64,000 bases of DNA, taken from contig OZ024745.1 in the NCBI GenBank assembly GCA_964016885.1, positions 68,944,001 to 69,008,000 on the forward strand. The letters are read 5' to 3'. The position numbers were made by a program, and so were the translations under genes. Source of the DNA: Eledone cirrhosa. Its lineage: Eukaryota. Shown here piece after piece: positions 47,826 through 64,000 of this stretch. Under the pieces are notes generated by a model, which searched no databases, was not told the DNA's origin, and was given only the letters and a program-made list of their open reading frames with translations. Numbering within the stretch: the stretch's first letter is position 1; each line of letters begins with the position of its first letter.

Positions 47826-48219
47826 TTATTATATGATTATCTTTAATTATATAATTATGATTATTTATTTAATTATCTACCATTTTTTTCTTCTGTTTCA
47901 GTTTTCTAGACAGCTAGACTCATTATCATTATTTTGAACAATGATATTAAGTAATGTAATAAATTAATCGTATTAACGTTTTTTGAATCTGTTAAATTTT
48001 GTTTTGAAAGAGATGGCATAATTGTGAGACTAAATTCCCCAAATACACGATATTTCATTTGTTTACTATCATTTTTTCCTGATGTGACACTGAACATAAC
48101 ATGTGTATAGATAGATAATTACAGTAATGTATTAATTGATAAACACTATGATGAAGTGGTTACAAAGTTCATTTTGCTATCATGAGGAACCGTGTTTGAT
48201 ATCATATCAAATTTTTCAT

Positions 48220-49267
48220 TAACCCGTTTGATATCAAATTGCCTGAAACTACCTCAAGTTCTATGATACAAAATTTTCTAAAGTGCTTATATTTGTCTAA
48301 AACCTTTCTATCATAATTTTATGAAAGAACCTCTGATAAGTTATGTTTGAAACACTTTTGGCACAAGGTCAGCAATGAGAAGGGAAGGTGGAAGTCAATT
48401 AAATCGACCAGTGCATTACTGGTACTTTATTTTATTGATCCCATAAGGATGAAAGGCAAAGCTAACCATGGCAAGGTTTGAACTTTGACAATAAAGGGGT
48501 ATAACTATATGCCGCAAATCCTGCTGTCCAATGCTCTACCGATTCTTCCAATCCACTGCCCTCACACCAGATAAATAATTGTTTCTACTTGAGGCACAAG
48601 GCCACCAATTTGAAGAGGAGGGGTAAGTTGATTAAATCGACCCCATAAGGATGAAAGGCAAAGTTAACATTGGCGGGATTTGAACTCAGAACGTAAAGAT
48701 CTATAACTCTCTGTTGCAAAGCATGGTGTCTGATGTTCTACCAATATTGGACTGGTAATCCACTGCCTTTACAACATATAAATAATTGTTTCTACATTTG
48801 GCACAGGGCCAGCAATTACCCAATACATTACTGGTACTTTATTTTATTTACCCCGTAAGGATGAAAGCCAAAGTTAAGCTCGGCAGGATTTTAATTCAGA
48901 CCATAAAGGGCCGTAACTCTTTGCTGCAAAGCATGGCGTCAGACCCTCTACCGATACTGCCAATCCACCACATAAATAATTGTTTCTATTTTTGGCACAA
49001 GGCCAGCAATTACCCAGTACATTACTGGTACTTTATTTTATCGACCCCGTAAGGATGAAAGGCAAAGTTAACCTCGGTGGGATTTGAACTCAGATCATAT
49101 AGGGACGTAACTCTATGCTTCAAAGCATGGTGTCCAACTCTCTACCGATACTGCCAATCCACAATGAAAGTTAGTTATATTACTGAATCCCTCCAAATGT
49201 TTTATTATTTAAGAAAACTATTTTTAAATTAGTGTTTTTCATTAAAAATAAGGTAATGAATGAGTTA
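48220..49267 (-). mobile_element. TTAA MITE interrupted by four head-to-tail Meta-like SINE copies (~48350-49162)
   Basis: TTAACCCGTTTGATATC start, GAGTTAA end; four GGATGAAAG.CAAAG.TAA..../GATTTGAACTC units inside. Confidence 0.75.
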
Positions 49268-51107
49268 ATCAACTGTGGCATTGCAATATTGTGTTTGCTG
49301 AGTATTCAGGAGTAAATTTGACAGCAGTTCAAACTACTTATGAAGTTAGGGTAAGGAATTGGCAGTGAATTCAGTACATTTACAATATGGCTGAGGTTCA
49401 TCTGGGAACTATCCTTAGCCTCTGCTTTTTTTTTTTTTAGCATATTCTTTGAGAAGGTAAAACAAATATTGCAAAGGCCTGAGGACCTAGTGGTTAGGGC
49501 TTTGGACTCACAAATATAAGGATGTTTGTTCAATTAGTTGACTGGGGTTCCTATCATTAAAACACCTGAAAAACCTGCTATGAGATGTAACTTGCTAATA
49601 GAGATGTAAAATGTCAATTGCTCTAACAATTTCCCGAATCCACTGAATTAGATTGGTATATTATTTCTTTGAACCAGAAACGGTGAAAGATAAAATTGAC
49701 CTTGGCAGGATTTGAACTCAGAGATCTGGAACAAATACAACAAGATATTTTGTCCTCTGTTCTAACCACTTTGCCAATTTGTCACTTAACCTTTATACCA
49801 GATGAAAATAGACTTGTTTGATGCTTTAGGATGTGTGGTGTTGAGAACCCAATATTGTGTATGCTGTATATACAAGAGATACACAAATACTGTAGTGAAA
49901 ATATAGCAGCTACAGTTTAGAAGAGATGGGAAGAGAGCGAGTTGTTGTTTGGACAAAGGTCAATCCTGATGAAACAGACATGATCAATGCTATTCTAGCC
50001 ACAACCATCCTGTCATAGTATATCTGGCTCAACATTGTTCAATATGTCCTTTCTGTTTTAAGACAGTAAGGTATGATTTGAGGGAATTCCACTGCTATTT
50101 CTACCAGATCAAGCAACTATATAAAGTCTCTATTGTTGGCTCATCCTTATTGGTTATTGTATCAAGGAGAATGATTGATTGTATGGATATGCAATGATAA
50201 TCATGAAATGAGTTCAGTAAATGGAAAGACATCATTGTCATCATAAGTTTTATATCTCCTTCTCCATATTGGTATAGGTTGGACATGACTTTGTGAAGTA
50301 GTGCTTAATGATTGAATTTTTATCTTCATAACCCTTTTAGTAGCAGGTATGCAGTGTATTTATTCTAAAAACAAGGATACAGAAGAAGTGGTGAAGTTTG
50401 TTCTATGGTTTGGGGGCAATAGAGACAAGAGGACAACTTTTTGAAAGACATAAAAAATGCATACTAATATCTGCATTATGAAATGCTTTTCCCATAATAG
50501 CATTAACCCTTTTGTTACCATATTTCTAATAAAACACAGCATATGATTTTCGAATAATTTCGAAATTATTTAAGAATCTTGAGGGATTTAGAAATATGGT
50601 TTCTGATTTAGGTACAAGGCCTACACATTTTTGGGAAGGGAAAGTCGATTAAATTGAACCTAGTACATTACTTTATTGATCCCATAAGGATGAAAGGCAA
50701 GGCTAACCATGCCAGGATTGGAAATCAGAATGTAAAGGGACATAACTATATGCTTTAAAGCATGTTGTTCGATGTTCTGCTGATACTACCAATCCCCTAC
50801 CCTAAGGGATTTAGAAATGTAACCCCATTGTAAAACTGGTGTTTGGACAAAACAAAAGTTGTTATATAAAATTATGATGAAAGGTTTTTTAAGGGGTGAC
50901 TTTATGTGATTTCATATCAAAAGGATTAATAAAATTGATAGGGTGAATGAAATAGAAAATATTTAGAGATTGTAAATTGATTTCAAGCATCATTGTTGAA
51001 ACAAAACTTCAGCAACAGGTGTTGTTAAACAAATTCATTTTGTCAGTTCAACATTTAATAATAATATCACTGGATTGAATTACAGTTCACAGTAGGTAGG
51101 TAGGTAG

Positions 51108-51109
<2 letters not shown>

Positions 51110-51152
<43 letters not shown>
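51110..51152. repeat. (TG)n microsatellite
   Basis: Directly visible. Confidence 0.95.
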
Positions 51153-51156
<4 letters not shown>

Positions 51157-51370
51157 AAAGGTAAACAGAAATAACAAAACAAACGAAACTACATAGATGA
51201 AATATATTAGTCTTACAGTTTTGGACACTAGTCCTTAATTAGAAGATAGAGTTAGAAATAGAAGATAAATAGAAAGTAAAGAGCAATAAGAGGAAGGAAA
51301 TGGGGAAATATAAGAGAGAAAAAGAGAGAAAAAAAACAGGTGTGTATTCAGTCAGCCATCTTGAAGCGTT

Positions 51371-51372
<2 letters not shown>
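51153..51372 (-). mobile_element. Penelope-like fragment with decayed hammerhead (51211-51246), same family as 40775-40950
   Basis: Shares AAAAGG.AAACAGAAATAACAAA.CAAA and GTTTTGGACACTAGTCCTT.AT.AGAAGA with the 40.8-kb copy. Confidence 0.65.
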
Positions 51373-51432
<60 letters not shown>

Positions 51433-51644
51433 CGTTTCTGAATTTGTTTAGCAAGATTCTTTATCTGAAATCGTGTGTTGAAACCGATATTGTTATACTT
51501 TGGGAGGGTCATGTTGTCAATAAGAAACACACGCACCAGTTGCTTTCACTTCAATTTATTATATATTTATAAATTTATAAATTTATAAGTCTATAAATTT
51601 CTGGTTGGTTGGTTGGTTCCACAACCAGATAGTTGTTTATATAT

Positions 51645-51689
51645 AGTCATAGTTCTTTCGTCACACACTATGTGACTTCTTCAGTAACT
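51645..51689 (-). ncRNA. Minimal type I hammerhead ribozyme (left arm)
   Basis: AGTTA-CTGAAGA-A-GTCACA(TAGTG)TGTGAC-GAAAG-AA-CTA-TGACT. Confidence 0.75.
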
Positions 51690-51798
51690 GGGGATTCCTT
51701 TCTTTGTTTCTGTGCCTCTCCTTTGTTCTGTCCTACGCCAAACAAAATGGCGTAGGACAGAACAAAGGAGAGGCACAGAAACAAAGAAAGGAATCCCC

Positions 51799-51843
51799 AG
51801 TCACTGAAGAGGTCACAGAGTGTGTGACGAAAGAACTATGACT
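51799..51843 (+). ncRNA. Minimal type I hammerhead ribozyme (right arm)
   Basis: Stem I AGTCA/TGACT, CTGAAGA 51804-51810, stem II GTCACA/TGTGAC, GAAA 51829-51832, 2-bp stem III, CUA triplet with predicted cut after 51838. Confidence 0.78.
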
Positions 51844-51993
51844 ATATATAAACAACTATCTGGTTGTGGAACCAACCAACCAACCAGAAATTTATAGATT
51901 TATAAATTTATAAATTTATAAATATATAATAAATTGAAGTGAAAGCAACTGGTGCGTGTGTTTCTTATTGGCAACATGACCCTCCCAAAGTAT

Positions 51994-52083
<90 letters not shown>

Positions 52084-53333
52084 CTCTTTAAAGTTAGTAA
52101 AATGTTGACACAGGAACCATGTAGAAAAACTGTTAATTTTTTAAAATATCCTAATGATGCATATCTTAGTTCCATAATTCCTGCCTAAAGTAAAATTGAT
52201 ATTTCACTCACATTCCCATTCATTTTGAAACCTTTATAACGTCTTCAACGAGAAGGAATGTACAAGGATGGCTATATATGCCTATATATATAGACACAGA
52301 TTAAGTGAAAGGTTTCCTAGCATTTAAAAAAATTGGATGTAAAACTAAAACTCCTTTGAAACATGCGTAAGGGAATAAATATAGTTTTTTTAAATAATAG
52401 AAGTTGATTTTTTCATTGGTATATTTGTTTATATTTGCTCTGTGTTTATGCCTACACCTCCACATTTATCTCACTAATAACTTCTTTCTCTTCAAACCTT
52501 TATATTATATAACTGCATTGAGCTTATCCTAAAAAGATGTGGCAATTACATACTATCATATGTAATTCTCTAATTTCTTCTGAGCATTGTTTGTATAGTT
52601 CTACCTTTCCTATAATTATATATATACATATATATATATGTACATATAAATGAACTGAATATTATCACAGACTAACCACTACTTGGTAATATTTTTCAAT
52701 ACAGTGCTTTTTATTGGTAAACCTATATCTGTTGATGTACGAATGTTGTACTTCCATGTGTGAGACCTGTTGAAATATCTATACAAAGAGACCATTTGTT
52801 ACTGAAATATCAATCAACAACAAATGTATCATAGATTTATCCAATTCCAAATTGGATAATGTACAGTATATTATCTGATTTCAGCAAACATGTCAGAAAA
52901 CTTAATTGCCAGGTGTGAAAGAATGATCATTGTCATAATCATCACCCTTTTACATCCAATTTCCATGCTGGCATGGGTTGGACGGGTTGTTATGGCCTGA
53001 AACTAGATGTGGCATAGTTTTCATATTTGGGATGACCTTCCTAATGCTAACCACATTTCAGGGTGTCCTGGATGCATTTTATCATGGTACCATCATTACC
53101 ACTTTACAGAATGTACTAGGTGCATTTTTCTAGGCACCAACATATATGTTAGAGTTATTCTTTTATATTAAATCACTTGAAACGGCACTTCGTTCTACAA
53201 TACAAAAATATTTATTTTGAAATGTATATATATCACCAAGTTAATAATGAGGTTATATTTCTAAATCCATCAAAATTGGTTATTATTTTCAAGATATTTT
53301 GAAAATCATAGTATCATTTATTAAAAATATGAT

Positions 53334-53520
53334 AATTGTTTCTACTTTAGGCACAAGGCCAGCAATTACCCAGTGCATTACTGGTACTTTATTTTATCGA
53401 CCCCGTAAGGATGAAAGGCAAAGTCAACCTCGGCGGGATTTGAACTCAGATCGTAAAGGGACGTAACTATGCTGGAAAGCATGGCGTCCGACCCTCTACC
53501 GATACTGCCAATCCACCACA
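53334..53520 (-). mobile_element. Young full-length Meta-like tRNA SINE
   Basis: Minus strand TGGCAGTATCGG A box, GAGTTCAAATCCCG B box, GCCTTTCATCCTTACGGGGTCGATAAAATAAAGTACCAG; CpGs retained. Confidence 0.9.
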
Positions 53521-54020
53521 GTATTTTTCATTAGAAATATGGAAATGAAAGAATTAAGAACAGAAACAACAAAATACACAATACAAACCATGTCTGTTAA
53601 CATTTTTCATTCTTTTATACAAAGCTGTTTATTTTTAAGTGTTTATATTTATCTGAAAAATTTCCACTATAATTTTATATAAAAAAACTTAAGTTTTGTT
53701 CAAAATACCAGATAAATAACGAGGAAGTTAATTATATTACAAAATCTTTAAAAGCCTATTTTAATTTGATGCACAAGTGGTTTAATATTCTGTAACATGT
53801 ATCATTAACATAGATCTAAGAGAGGTACAGTATGATACAAGATGTAACAAGGCTTGCCCTTTGAATTACAGATTCATCTCATTTTTACTAGCATCATTGA
53901 CAGGAGCAATATAAAGTAAATTGCCTTGCTAAAAATCCTAATGAATCTCTGGGAACTGAAATCCCACCTTATGATTGGGAGCCATTCTAACCTTTAAACG
54001 ACATACCCTCACAGGATGAA

Positions 54021-54517
54021 AGTAAGTCACAAAATAATTGTTTCTACTTTAGGTACAAGACCAGCAATTCTGGGGGAGGGAAAAGTCGATTAAATCGACC
54101 CCCAGTGCATGACTGGTACTTTATTTTATTGACCCCATAACGATGAAAGGCAAAGCTAACCTCAGTGAGATTTGAACTCAGAACATAAAGAGCCGTAACT
54201 ATGCCATGAAGCATGTTGTCCAATGCTCTACCAATACTGCCAATCCACTGCCCTTAGTAAATCACAAAATAATAATAGTTTCTTATATAGGCACAAGGCC
54301 AGCAATTTGGGGGGAGGGGAAAGTCAATTAAATTGGCCCCTGTGCATGACTGGTACTTTATTTTATGGACCCTGTAAGGATGAAAGGCAAAGTTAATCTC
54401 GGCAGGATTTGAACTCAGATCATAAAGGACTGTAACTCTATTCTGCAAAGCATGGCGTCTGACCCTCTACCGATACTGCCAATCCACTGCCCTTAGTAAA
54501 TCACAAAATAATAATAA
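54021..54517 (-). mobile_element. Two tandem Meta-like SINEs separated and flanked by a triplicated target sequence
   Basis: AGTAA(G/A)TCACAAAATAAT at 54021, ~54256 and ~54495. Confidence 0.85.
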
Positions 54518-54574
54518 TATGAATTGAGTTTTGTGGCAATTTTGAAAACATTGACAATATTGTAATTTTTTTTT

Positions 54575-54826
54575 AATGACTAAAAGACCATTGCATATAA
54601 AGAAATAAAATGAAGTGTTTTATTCTAACTTTTCAGTCTTAAAATACTTTCATCAGTAAATCGGTATGTCAGAAAGATTTTAATGCTGCTCTTCCAAACT
54701 TCAACTCCAATTTGACTGACCATTAACCTATGTTAAAATCTTTCTGGCACACCAATTCACTGATGAAAAATTTGAATAAAACCAGGTTTTATGTTTTTAC
54801 ATGCATTGTTTGGAATCTTAGTCATT
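54575..54826. repeat. Old imperfect inverted duplication
   Basis: Core TTTCATCAGTAAATCGGTATGTCAGAAAGATTTTAA (54648-54683) pairs with TTAAAATCTTTCTGGCACACCAATTCACTGATGAAA (54733-54768); outer AATGACTAA/TTAGTCATT. Confidence 0.75.
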
Positions 54827-55874
54827 TAATAATTTGTAATAATAATAATAATAATAATAACAACAGTAATAATAGTTTCTGATATTGGCACAAGACTAAC
54901 AATTTTATATTTTTGTGGGGGAGGGAACTGGGGGTCGATTAAATTGATTCCAGTACTTTGCTGATACTTTATGTTATCAAACCCCAGAAAGATGAAAAGC
55001 GAAGTTGACCTCAGCAGAATTTGAACACAGACTGAAAAGGGGCAGAAAAAAATACAATAAATCACTTCATCCAACACCTTAACAATTCTGATGATGATGA
55101 TGATTATGATTGTGCTAGTGATGATGATGATGATAGCAGTAGTTGTAGTAAGCTATGTAAACCACTTAATACATGAAGTCAATATACAGTGATCATCATC
55201 ATTAGCTAACTTGGAGTTGTCTCCAGTAGTTTCATGGACAACCCAAGAATTACTTTCATGAATTCTAGTAACAACCAGACTCTCCGTCAGCCAGGAGAAT
55301 GAGTTTAACAGTTTTTAGCTATGCACAGAAAGAAATGCACTGCTGACATTTTATACTTTAAACATTATGCAAAAGCAACCTAAAGGCATCCTCTTCAGCA
55401 AGTTCTTATCGTTCAGTAAAGTTTGGCAGACAACCCAAACATTTACATGCCAAAATTCCATTTTCCCAGAGGAAAAATAGATTAAAAAAAACCACAAACT
55501 TGTGTCACATTGTTATAACCAGACAGTAAAACTTAATACAGTAAGACAATTACGGGAAGGTGTTTTTAAGCTATATTATATATTTCAAAACAGGTAAAAC
55601 ACACAGACACACATCTATTTTTATCGTTGTAACTTCATTAAGCCAAATAAAGTAGATGTTTTTACTTTATTTTCATATAGTTGGATAGTTAAGGAATTCA
55701 CTTCATAATCACATTGGTCTGGTTTCAATCCTACTGTGTGGCACCTTAGGCAAGTATCTTCTACTATAATCCCTGGTTGACTAATGGTCTGTGAAGGGAA
55801 TTTGGTAGAAACAAACTGCAGAAAGCCATCATATATACATATGGTAATAATTATATCTATTTATTTATATATAT

Positions 55875-56120
55875 TGTCATTATCATCATCATTTTACATC
55901 CATTTTCTCATGCTTGCATGGGTTGGATGGGTCCTTTTAAGCATAACATCTCTCCACTTGCAGCCTTTCTTCGTCATCTCCTCTGTAAGTCTCAGTGTTT
56001 TGAGGTTAGCTCTCATCACCTCTGCCCAGATCTTTCTTGGTCTACCTTTACTGTGGCTTCCATTCAGTGGCATTTCTCGGCACCTCTTCACCCATCGATC
56101 ATCATCCATGTGCATCACAC
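55875..56120 (-). mobile_element. RTE LINE 3' terminal fragment
   Basis: ORF 55894-56118 MHMDDDRWVKRC...GRPRKIWAEV, close to the 3' end of the 61.7-kb element; (ATC)n tail. Confidence 0.9.
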
Positions 56121-61020: not shown

Positions 61021-61668
61021 TTTGGCATATATATATATCCCTTGCTAGCATGGAAAATGCATGTTAAATGATGATGATATCTATCTATCTCTCATTTATA
61101 TATAGTCCATTTCTCCCATGTTGGCCAGGATGTTTTTCAACTGTATGCTCTTCCTGGCACCAAACTTTTTAGTCATCTTTTACAACACTCATGGATACAA
61201 TGTACTCATTCATAAAAACCAGGTTACACCCAGCAAAGTATATATATCTATAGGAGGGGGATGATGCAAAATACATCAAGTGAAGAGGATGAGATATTTT
61301 CATTCTCTTCAAAGGAGAGCTATTGTCAAAAATACCCCACCACCATCTTCCATGATGTTCGTTAGTTCTTATATGTAAACAACGATAGAGTAGAATATCT
61401 TACTATGAAATATATCAAATATTTAACCTTGTGACTGAGAAAAGAAACAGTGGTGGTTATGGTTGGTTCAACCACACTTCCATGTTATAGTCATTATTGA
61501 TTTCAGGATATATATTGCACATACATAGATCATCTCTTTATTGATTTCACACCGTTAAGAAATGTAGTTAATATAAGATAAACAAAAATTGTTTGCATAT
61601 CATAACAAAAAAATATGAACACAAACGTATTATACCTACAACACACACACACACATATTATATATATA

Positions 61669-64000
61669 TCATCATCATCATCATCATCATCATTTTACGT
61701 CCGCTCTTCCCTGCTTGCAAGGGTGGGACGGGTCTTATTCAGCACAGCATCTCTCCACTTGTCACGGTCCTTCGTCAACTCCACCATGAGCTTCAGCGAT
61801 CTGAGGTCTGTTCTCACCACCTACGCCCATGTTTTTCGTGGTCTACCTCTACCACGTCTTCCTTCAACTGGCATTTCCTGGCACTTCTTCACTCATCGGT
61901 CATCCTCCATGTGCATCACATGTCCATACCAGCTCAGTCTCCTCTCCCGTACACTATATTCTATCCCTCTCAGACACAGTTTCTCTCTTAACACATTCAT
62001 GGTGGGTTGTTCATGCATATTGACAGTGCACATCCAACGGAGCATGCTTGCCTCATTTCTCTCCAGCCGTCGCATATCCTCTGCAGTTGCTGCCCATGTC
62101 TCACTACCATGCAACATCGTGCTCCTCACACAGGCATCTTATAACCGGCCTTTCGTACGCAGGGAGAAACCCTTCTTCGTCAGCAGAGGAAGCAGCTCCC
62201 TAAACTTCTTCCATCCAACCCATCCTTATTCTAGATACTATGGCCTCAGAACACCCCTCCCATGCTAATCTGATCTCCTAGGTACCGGAAGCTATCCACC
62301 ACTTCTAAAGCACCCGCCTGCATTTTAAAAATGTGTCTATCAATGCGACTTCTACTGTCTAATTTCCCTGTTCATCTACTGCATACATATTTCTCCCTAC
62401 CTATTAGTTTGCCTGCTATCCTGCTACATCTCTTGTGTACCCAGGATCTGCATTGTGTGCATTTTATAGAATTTATGCCAGTTCCTTTTTTGCATATCGA
62501 ACATGGCCATTTCCCTGACGGAATCCGAGTTTTGTCCTCTTTTCTATTCATCAACACTTTTGTCTTAGCTAGGTTCACTCTCAGTCCTCTTGCTTCCAAC
62601 TGCTGTTTCCATAGCCAGAATTCTCTAGCTCCTCTACTGATTCTGCTATAAGAACCAGATCATCAGCATAGAGAAGTTCCCATGGACAGCCAGTCTTAAA
62701 CTCCTCTGTTATGGCTTGGAGGACTATAATGAACAAGAGCGAGCTGAGGACCAAACCTTGATGTACTCCTACTTGTATCTGGAATTCCTCACTAAACTCC
62801 ATTCCGACCCTGACTTTACTGACAGTACCTCTGTACAAAGTTTGCACTGTCCTCACAATCCATTCCTCAACACCTAGTTTCCTTAGGGACCACCAGATGA
62901 CAGATCGAGGTACCCTATCAAAGGCCTTCTCTAGGTCAACAAAGGCTAAGTATAGTGGCTTATTTTTCTCTAAGAACCTCTCTTGCAATTGTCTCACCAA
63001 GAAGAGGGCATCTGTTGTACTCTTCCCAGGCACAAAACCAAACTGCATCTCATCTAGTTTGACCCTTTCTCTAATTAGTTGTGCTAATATCCTTTCTGCC
63101 ACTTTCATAACCTGATCCATCAGTTTTATACCCCTATAATTGCTCCTCTCCAGAGCATCCCCTTTACCTTTGTAGGAATTTATGAGAATTCTGCTGCACC
63201 AGTCTTTGGGTATGACACCACCATATATAGCCTGATTGATGATGCATGGAACCAGTTTAGTGCCTACGTCCTCTGATGCCTTCAGCATCATAGCAACTAT
63301 TCCCGATGGTCCAGCAGCCTTACTATTTTTCATTTCCTTAATCGCTTCTTGGACCCTATATTCGTCAATCTCAATAGCTGGTCCCTCTATCGGATCTACT
63401 GAGGGTAATTTCTCTCTCTCCTATTTGTTCTCCACATTCATCCCTCTCTCATAATGACATTTCCAGGCCTCCTTTTTCTGACCATTTGTGACACTAAGTA
63501 CACCGGCATTGTTCCGGACACATTTATCTCCAACAACATCCTGATTTGCATTGACACACTACCTTGCAATGTGGAACACCACATGCCTCTGATCTTCCCA
63601 TCGCAGAACATTGGCAAACCTCCTTCTCTCAGCCTCCCTGCGTGCTAAGTACACCTGACGTCTAGCTTCTCTCTTAGCGGCTGTATATTCTTCCCTACTC
63701 CCACCCTTTTTCCAAGCCTTCCATGCTAGTCTTTTGTCTCTAATGGCCTTATCTACTGTACTGTGCTGTTCCACCACCAGGTCACTCTCTGTCTGGTTGG
63801 AGCTCTGCTCCAGCCATAAGTTTCATCAGTAGCCTGCAGTAAGTTGTCACGTAAGAAATTCCAGTTATTATCTATGTCATACATCTCTAAATCATCTTCT
63901 TTTTCGTCATACACATCTTGAAGGGCTTTCCTAAATTTTTATTTTAGTGAAAGGTCTTTTAGCTTCCAGACCTTTCTTCTCCACACCTTCCTGTATGTCT
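61669..64000 (-). mobile_element. RTE-clade LINE, 3' 2.3 kb (runs past window end), frameshifted RT
   Basis: ORF 62581-63333 has KAAGPSG, NYRGIKL, QFGF, AFVDLEKAFDRV, GVHQG..LS, YADDL; downstream RWYGHVM; tail (ATC)n at 61669-61692. Confidence 0.97.

Follow-up and report, generated by a model that had tools for sequence, protein, structure and literature searches.

A palindromic, hammerhead-bearing locus of Eledone cirrhosa read as a truncated head-to-head insertion of an abundant Penelope-like element

The window analysed here is a 64,000-nt stretch of the Eledone cirrhosa genome (contig OZ024745.1, positions 68,944,001 to 69,008,000) in which a short palindrome lies between two (TA)n tracts. 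Unsigned positions are those of the window; signed positions are those of the element, numbered on its full-length copy L110 (ATG = +1). The locus has the following layout.

51373..51429, no strand: (TA)n target on the left side, a sequence repeat
51430..51486, minus strand: tail, ORF positions +27 to +83 of the element, which with the target-shared ATAT ends at +86 (long end)
51487..51740, minus strand: left arm, 5'-truncated pLTR from -207 to +26, with the ATG at 51512
51645..51689, minus strand: minimal type I hammerhead motif of the left arm, predicted to be cut after 51650
51741..51747, plus strand: centre, made up of additional 5' element bases (-214 to -208) that belong to the right arm and are not foreign DNA
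51748..52001, plus strand: right arm, pLTR from -207 to +26 (short end), with the ATG at 51976
51799..51843, plus strand: minimal type I hammerhead motif of the right arm, predicted to be cut after 51838
51998..52083, no strand: (TA)n target on the right side, whose first 4 bases (ATAT) are common to the element end

The palindrome, the hammerhead motifs, the 57-nt extension of one arm and the (TA)n at both ends, all described in the original prediction, are real features of the sequence; both motifs and their cut sites were read from the sequence. The arms (51487-51740 and 51748-52001) are 254 nt each, 98% complementary and separated by 7 nt. The three arm differences previously reported in the ribozyme (51686/51802, 51677/51811 and 51670/51818) were found again, and two more lie outside it, giving a total of five rather than three. 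At all five sites the right arm has the majority base of the family, and the excess of changes in the left arm (5 vs 0) is not significant (P=0.06). The left arm also has 57 extra non-TA bases at 51430-51486, reading MTLPKYNNIGFNTRFQIKNLAKQIQKRI. In L110 coordinates the left arm extends from -207 to +86 and the right arm from -215 to +26, and the junction base 51740 is compatible with both. Because the right arm begins 8 nt further 5' (-215 vs -207), the 7 nt once regarded as a loop are in fact its own extra element bases.

The window also contains fragments of a non-LTR retrotransposon RT at 62581-63420 (minus strand) and 61606-62268, presumably RTE-like by their motifs, as well as a SINE-like repeat at 48414-49162, 50660-50749 and 53381-53470, with a 194-bp tandem array of 3.7 copies at 48414.

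Searching the genome of the same species with the left arm gave 2,684 candidates, 40 of which were scored and proved to be 96-100% identical. Palindromic and TA-flanked copies are among those of the family, and the longer ones run on, upstream of the arm, into RT and nuclease coding sequence. Among 59 long loci scanned, the whole ORF is open in one, L110, where the order is (TA)n, an inverted truncated copy with tail, pLTR, the intact ORF, pLTR and (TA)n. This ORF (L110:1922-5608, minus strand; protein P0001) encodes 1,228 aa beginning with MTLPKYNN. The tail of the window copy, which had been likened to the start of an ORF following a pLTR, is exactly that on L110 coordinates, and the intact parent bears out the proposed Penelope origin. 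Some copies, such as L121 and L144 (element -357 to -261), have a duplication of roughly 97 nt in the pLTR; in L129 a deletion (-278 to -69) removes the hammerhead.

Across 36 homologues, the RT motifs DKSG, SMDVVSLYP and YVDD can be aligned, as can a CX4CxxC linker and a C-terminal VY..YIG nuclease with its R, E, H and N residues. In P0001 the linker cysteines are C1102, C1107 and C1110; C1129 and C1134 lie inside the VY..YIG core, and two histidines follow later. P0001 itself had no match in Pfam at E<=1, and among the 36 alignment members RVT_1 was detected in three and GIY-YIG in two, below the curated cut-offs. The single P0001 sequence gave one low-complexity match in the PDB (E 3), and the alignment profile matched a solved RT structure (E 7e-5). 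Among named proteins, one of Octopus vulgaris comes closest (69%). An Asn/Thr/His-rich low-complexity stretch, at about residues 190-430, lies in frame before the RT.

The element combines several features of EN+ Penelope-like elements: a single ORF with RT and GIY-YIG, a pLTR (a partial tandem) that includes the ORF start and contains a hammerhead motif, and an inverted 5'-truncated copy with a tail at one end. The C-terminal EN with a CX2-5CxxC linker and a CCHH motif is found in the Neptune clade, and we take the long linker of the L110 protein to be Neptune-like. A linker finger combined with a C-terminal EN excludes Penelope and Poseidon, which have no linker finger, and Naiad, whose EN is N-terminal, as these groups are described in the relevant part of PMC8557442. 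By the features listed there, rather than by a tree, the parent would be of the Neptune or Nematis type. We thus regard the window copy, with great confidence, as a short insertion in (TA)n, head-to-head and truncated at its 5' side, of an autonomous Penelope-like element (Neptune-like) that is abundant in this genome.

The ends of the copies are sharply defined. In a set of 79 loci, 40 of which had been selected for the long end, 104 of the 113 terminal ends fall at +26 or +86. Within the 4,039-nt unit, the heptamer AATATCG has just two occurrences, at +22 and +82, exactly where the two ends fall; both ends follow AATAT, so ATAT is common to the element end and the target. In the same set, no end fell at a longer TA run that lies at -105 to -113. 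In the whole genome, exact patterns within (TA)n numbered 14,339 for short ends and 12,413 for long ends, which upholds the predicted targeting of (TA)n; exact read-through junctions numbered 470, and reversed control patterns had no matches. Note that the end counts are lower bounds: the long end of the window copy, with one change, is itself uncounted. The predicted RNA structure at the putative +26 start site differs between two folded segments. In addition, a 46-bp tandem array (G000:C1:132947043-132947570) contains the +86 read-through junction, with 12 matches among those listed.

The two types of end are almost always paired with each other. From the first 100 short and 90 long ends by position on C1 (first 37 Mb), we obtained 46 outward-facing pairs within 5 kb, of which 42 were long plus short, three long plus long and one short plus short (50% long plus short expected, P=2e-9). 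The same pairing was seen in 14 of 16 pairs at loci chosen for the pLTR-ORF junction, where the long arm can be either one, and in 15 of 17 loci chosen by centre, besides the window copy. This regularity suggests that both cut DNA ends are likely to start copying from the same element RNA. The arms of one insertion are also related: they differ by 1.8%, as opposed to 3.5% between insertions (45 of 57 pairs, with at least 100 shared bases), a value not reached in any of 2,000 shuffles. Subfamily haplotypes agree within pairs, both arms carrying one source haplotype. Gene conversion between inverted arms can also yield such similarity. In PMC8557442, the tail is said, in the part bearing on it, only to be often at one end. 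Our literature search, which covered the papers cited here and listings of others, yielded no count of long-plus-short pairs, no link of the two ends to a common heptamer and no use of twin priming to explain PLEs.

A second palindromic, TA-anchored family was observed at L228-L239 (e.g. G000:C1:55963093 and G000:C2:83276776). It has its own hammerhead-like motif, whole in L237, and a tail of about 100 nt, and each of the 12 loci combines a long end with a short one. Its centre recurs inside the stem II hairpin of its hammerhead, which implies that hairpin-guided joining also makes hotspots.

The centres, where the two arms meet, are concentrated but not uniform. Pair spans are continuous from 37 bp to about 5 kb. 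Counted on the immediate 5' side, position -207 has 1,121 centres, -93 has 59 and -155 has 46, of which about half come from the second family; the main concentration, at -207 to -235, lies upstream of the ribozyme cut. The listed centres near -207 are diverse. A further breakpoint hotspot, at -58 to -68, accounts for 10 of 68 arms tabulated (L120-L179); it lies in a self-complementary AT-rich run, and several centres there overlap by 15-29 nt.

Motifs at -260, -251 and -211, which we take to resemble ETS, NRF1 and YY1 sites, would place a transcription start in the main hotspot. A YY1-like motif as the common cause of hotspots in both families was considered and dropped, since the centre of the second family is the stem II hairpin. 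An extra cap-derived G at the junction was clear in one case (L214) among 30 loci, most others being point changes in continuing copies; without a cap-G signature, pausing of the RT remains a rival cause of the hotspot. The chances that the RNA 5' end is the cause are, in our judgement, about even.

The strongest competing explanation is self-priming, in which one cDNA (or antisense RNA) folds back on itself and is copied into the inverted arm, as has been proposed for rotifer Penelope palindromes in the section of PMC3846280 concerned. It would account for the shared haplotype of the arms, and it agrees with the overlapping centres in the AT run at -58 to -68 and with the natural hairpin at the centre of the second family. 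However, copying of one strand cannot place the tail and the longer 5' reach on different arms. Among 19 pairs ordered by position, the tail-less arm extends more than 5 nt further 5' in nine, the tailed arm does so in four, and six are level; the nine cases argue against a simple fold-back. The window copy behaves in the same way: the arm without the tail is the one that extends further 5'. Each arm holds sequence absent from its partner, so neither can be a copy of the other. We therefore consider fold-back unlikely as the general route, while giving it more weight than any other rival.

Considerably less probable is that the palindrome is a mini-element in its own right, non-autonomous but itself transcribed and mobilised again in trans. 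About 1,100 palindromes centred in a narrow zone might suggest such a unit, as might L186 and L193, which are identical in centre and haplotype, with a third such centre among those listed. Yet L186 and L193 have their tails on opposite arms, palindrome sizes are continuous, and centres are diverse. The exact centre of the window copy with its flanks occurs three times. The copies examined that have the same centre, L181, L182 and L190, belong to three other subfamilies, and none of these carries the set of five left-arm changes of the window copy. A discrete unit amplified with a shared centre and private changes was thus not found among the copies compared, and the non-autonomous derivative originally proposed, as a self-standing unit, is not supported. 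Variable centres, and the same centre in other subfamilies, indicate instead that each palindrome is built anew. As an insertion of the autonomous element, the window copy would be passive, because it is without RT and without the promoter-like motifs at -260 to -242, and it is likely a dead end.

The hammerhead motifs raise the question of function. In the right arm, stem I is formed by 51799-51803 and 51839-51843, followed by CUGAAGA (51804-51810), an extra base at 51811, a 6-bp stem II, GAAA (51829-51832) and a stem III of the form G-AA-C. The hammerhead scan proposed earlier, carried out with Rfam over 48000-56000, matched no hammerhead model at E<=5, with only generic hairpin families below the gathering score, and the 45-nt motif, when folded by itself, gains no stability over shuffled sequences (z -1.1 and -1.7). 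The identification accordingly depends on the core pattern, which is complete in each arm as claimed, and on variation in the family. The core is kept in 158 of 170 copies. Shared family variants occur at four of 10 tolerant sites vs one of 35 core or stem sites (P=0.006; P=0.13 if flanking sequence is taken for comparison). These tallies were made without duplicate loci (219 of 240 rows), and the same four ribozyme variants were seen in raw DNA reads of other samples. The stem III loop is changed from AA to GA (equivalent to window position 51834) in 45 of 184 copies, which would give tandem G-A pairs in a dimer, and the cleavage base is changed from A to U in 30 of 185.

It is highly improbable that selection maintains this copy as a working ribozyme or dsRNA switch. 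All three ribozyme differences do lie at tolerant positions, as the claim of a preserved fold requires, although as a sign of selection on this copy they mean little: one of them is polymorphic in the family (11 of 179 copies), and in other copies rare changes strike the core at 0.66% per site, vs 0.8-1.1% elsewhere. The core is so widely kept simply because the copies are young. As far as sequence variation can tell, the distribution of variants fits selection on source copies, not on the window copy. Moreover, a stem III of 2 bp with a 2-nt loop is predicted to be active only as a dimer, according to the account of minimal motifs in PMC4209133. The suggested cleavage as a dimer fails in cis, because the two motifs are on opposite strands and any transcript contains one motif and its antisense. 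The predicted fold of the 572-nt palindrome RNA is a single long hairpin (-448.8 kcal/mol) in which the core is base-paired, and any read-through RNA would fold as a long duplex hiding the ribozyme.

None of the 68 arms tabulated ends at -96 to -130, around the predicted cut at about -117, which indicates that the cDNA passes an uncut or re-ligated site. This agrees with the report that hammerhead cleavage is not needed for insertion (PMC11167929, in the portion on this point) and is compatible with the circular template proposed in the corresponding portion of PMC4209133.

Sequencing reads were examined over 51610-51880: the DNA runs show the family, and one RNA run (6% of words) yielded no contigs. 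An assembly fold-back artefact is scarcely credible, for although no read among the pieces listed crosses the centre of the window copy, the arms differ at five sites and end unequally at the two fixed sites of the family, the centre contains additional element bases, and many loci repeat this architecture.

Taken as a whole, truncated insertion by two-ended priming on RNA from one source is, with good probability, the best explanation. It builds on what the copies display, namely the parent ORF, the fixed ends at +26 and +86, the pairing of one long with one short end, the shared haplotype of the arms and the variable centres. As a possible course of events, the RT/GIY-YIG protein would cut both strands of (TA)n, and each target 3' end would pair with the AUAU in one AAUAUCG site, two of which lie in the ORF start. 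Both cDNAs would then extend 5' through the uncut hammerhead, stop near -207/-215, probably at the 5' end of the RNA, and be joined head to head. The central step, that two cut target ends each prime reverse transcription on element RNA from one source, is somewhat favoured by the evidence. A stricter version, in which one RNP uses each AAUAUCG site exactly once by AUAU pairing with the two (TA)n cut ends, and the stubs are run-off from the RNA 5' end, is put forward only tentatively. In fact, the RT of PAc, the green anole Poseidon element, starts without homology to the cut DNA in the experiments of PMC11167929 considered here, so ATAT pairing may not be required.

In kind, the locus is ordinary: inverted truncated copies with a tail have already been described (in the pertinent parts of PMC3846280 and PMC8557442). 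Like the inverted-pLTR-plus-tail units of Pen2a_Av (PMC3846280; PMC8557442 Fig. 2), the copies are head-to-head, 5'-truncated and placed in a microsatellite target, and as in the account of Pen2a_Av in PMC3846280, the pLTR includes the first ORF codons, the tail is on one end only and the ORF has an asparagine-rich stretch. The N-terminal stretch of P0001 has a counterpart in the N-rich inserts noted for rotifer Penelopes in the same account. The tail is longer here, 57-60 nt vs 30-40 in the rotifer-type units as given in these two sources; unlike in Pen2a-type units, so far as they are characterised there, a target duplication is unreadable inside (TA)n and both ends share one heptamer. The one-end tail rule is counted here (42/46), whereas the described units come without such a count in the parts of PMC3846280 and PMC8557442 concerned.

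Among C-terminal-endonuclease PLEs, those of Neptune, Nematis and Hydra share the RT, the CX2-5CxxC linker, the GIY-YIG with internal cysteines, the hammerhead in the pLTR and the (TA)n target; compared by features, the long N/T/H-rich N-terminal stretch (about residues 190-430) is unlike Neptune-clade members. As with PAc in vitro (PMC11167929, in the experiments on target cutting and priming), two RT start sites inside the ORF start bound the tail, here 60 nt apart, and both strands are cut and extended, which for the present element is our reading of the genomic copies. The PAc sites have no homology to the cut DNA in those experiments, whereas the genomic ends here sit at target-shared ATAT. 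The hammerhead resembles the minimal ones of metazoan PLEs, in the description given in PMC4209133, with a long stem II, an extra base after A9, a 5-bp stem I and a tiny stem III. Motif pairs 100-700 bp apart on opposite strands have been noted (PMC4209133 and bioRxiv 10.64898/2026.07.22.740005, in the passages on motif arrangement). Retrozymes, as defined in the latter where the term is introduced, are tandem arrays of at least two consecutive units; a non-LTR retrozyme was rejected for the present locus, which is a head-to-head pair only, with no head-to-tail tandem units each bearing a hammerhead.

The origin of the inverted repeats and tails of PLEs, and how these elements find microsatellites, are named as open questions in the discussion of them in PMC8557442, and have been answered in part in PMC11167929, as far as the experiments considered here go. 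The present family is young; it includes an intact ORF, and its exact ends number more than 12,000 for either type. The predictions that it allows are that copying starts at +26 and +86, each site being used once in an insertion, that this depends on pairing of AUAU, and that the RNA begins near -207 to -235. If true, two-ended, homology-guided insertion would explain the tail, the inverted repeat and the microsatellite targeting of Penelope-like elements in one step, and would replace the self-priming model. For the genome itself, the family adds roughly a thousand or more long perfect hairpins, which are a possible source of dsRNA and A-to-I editing.
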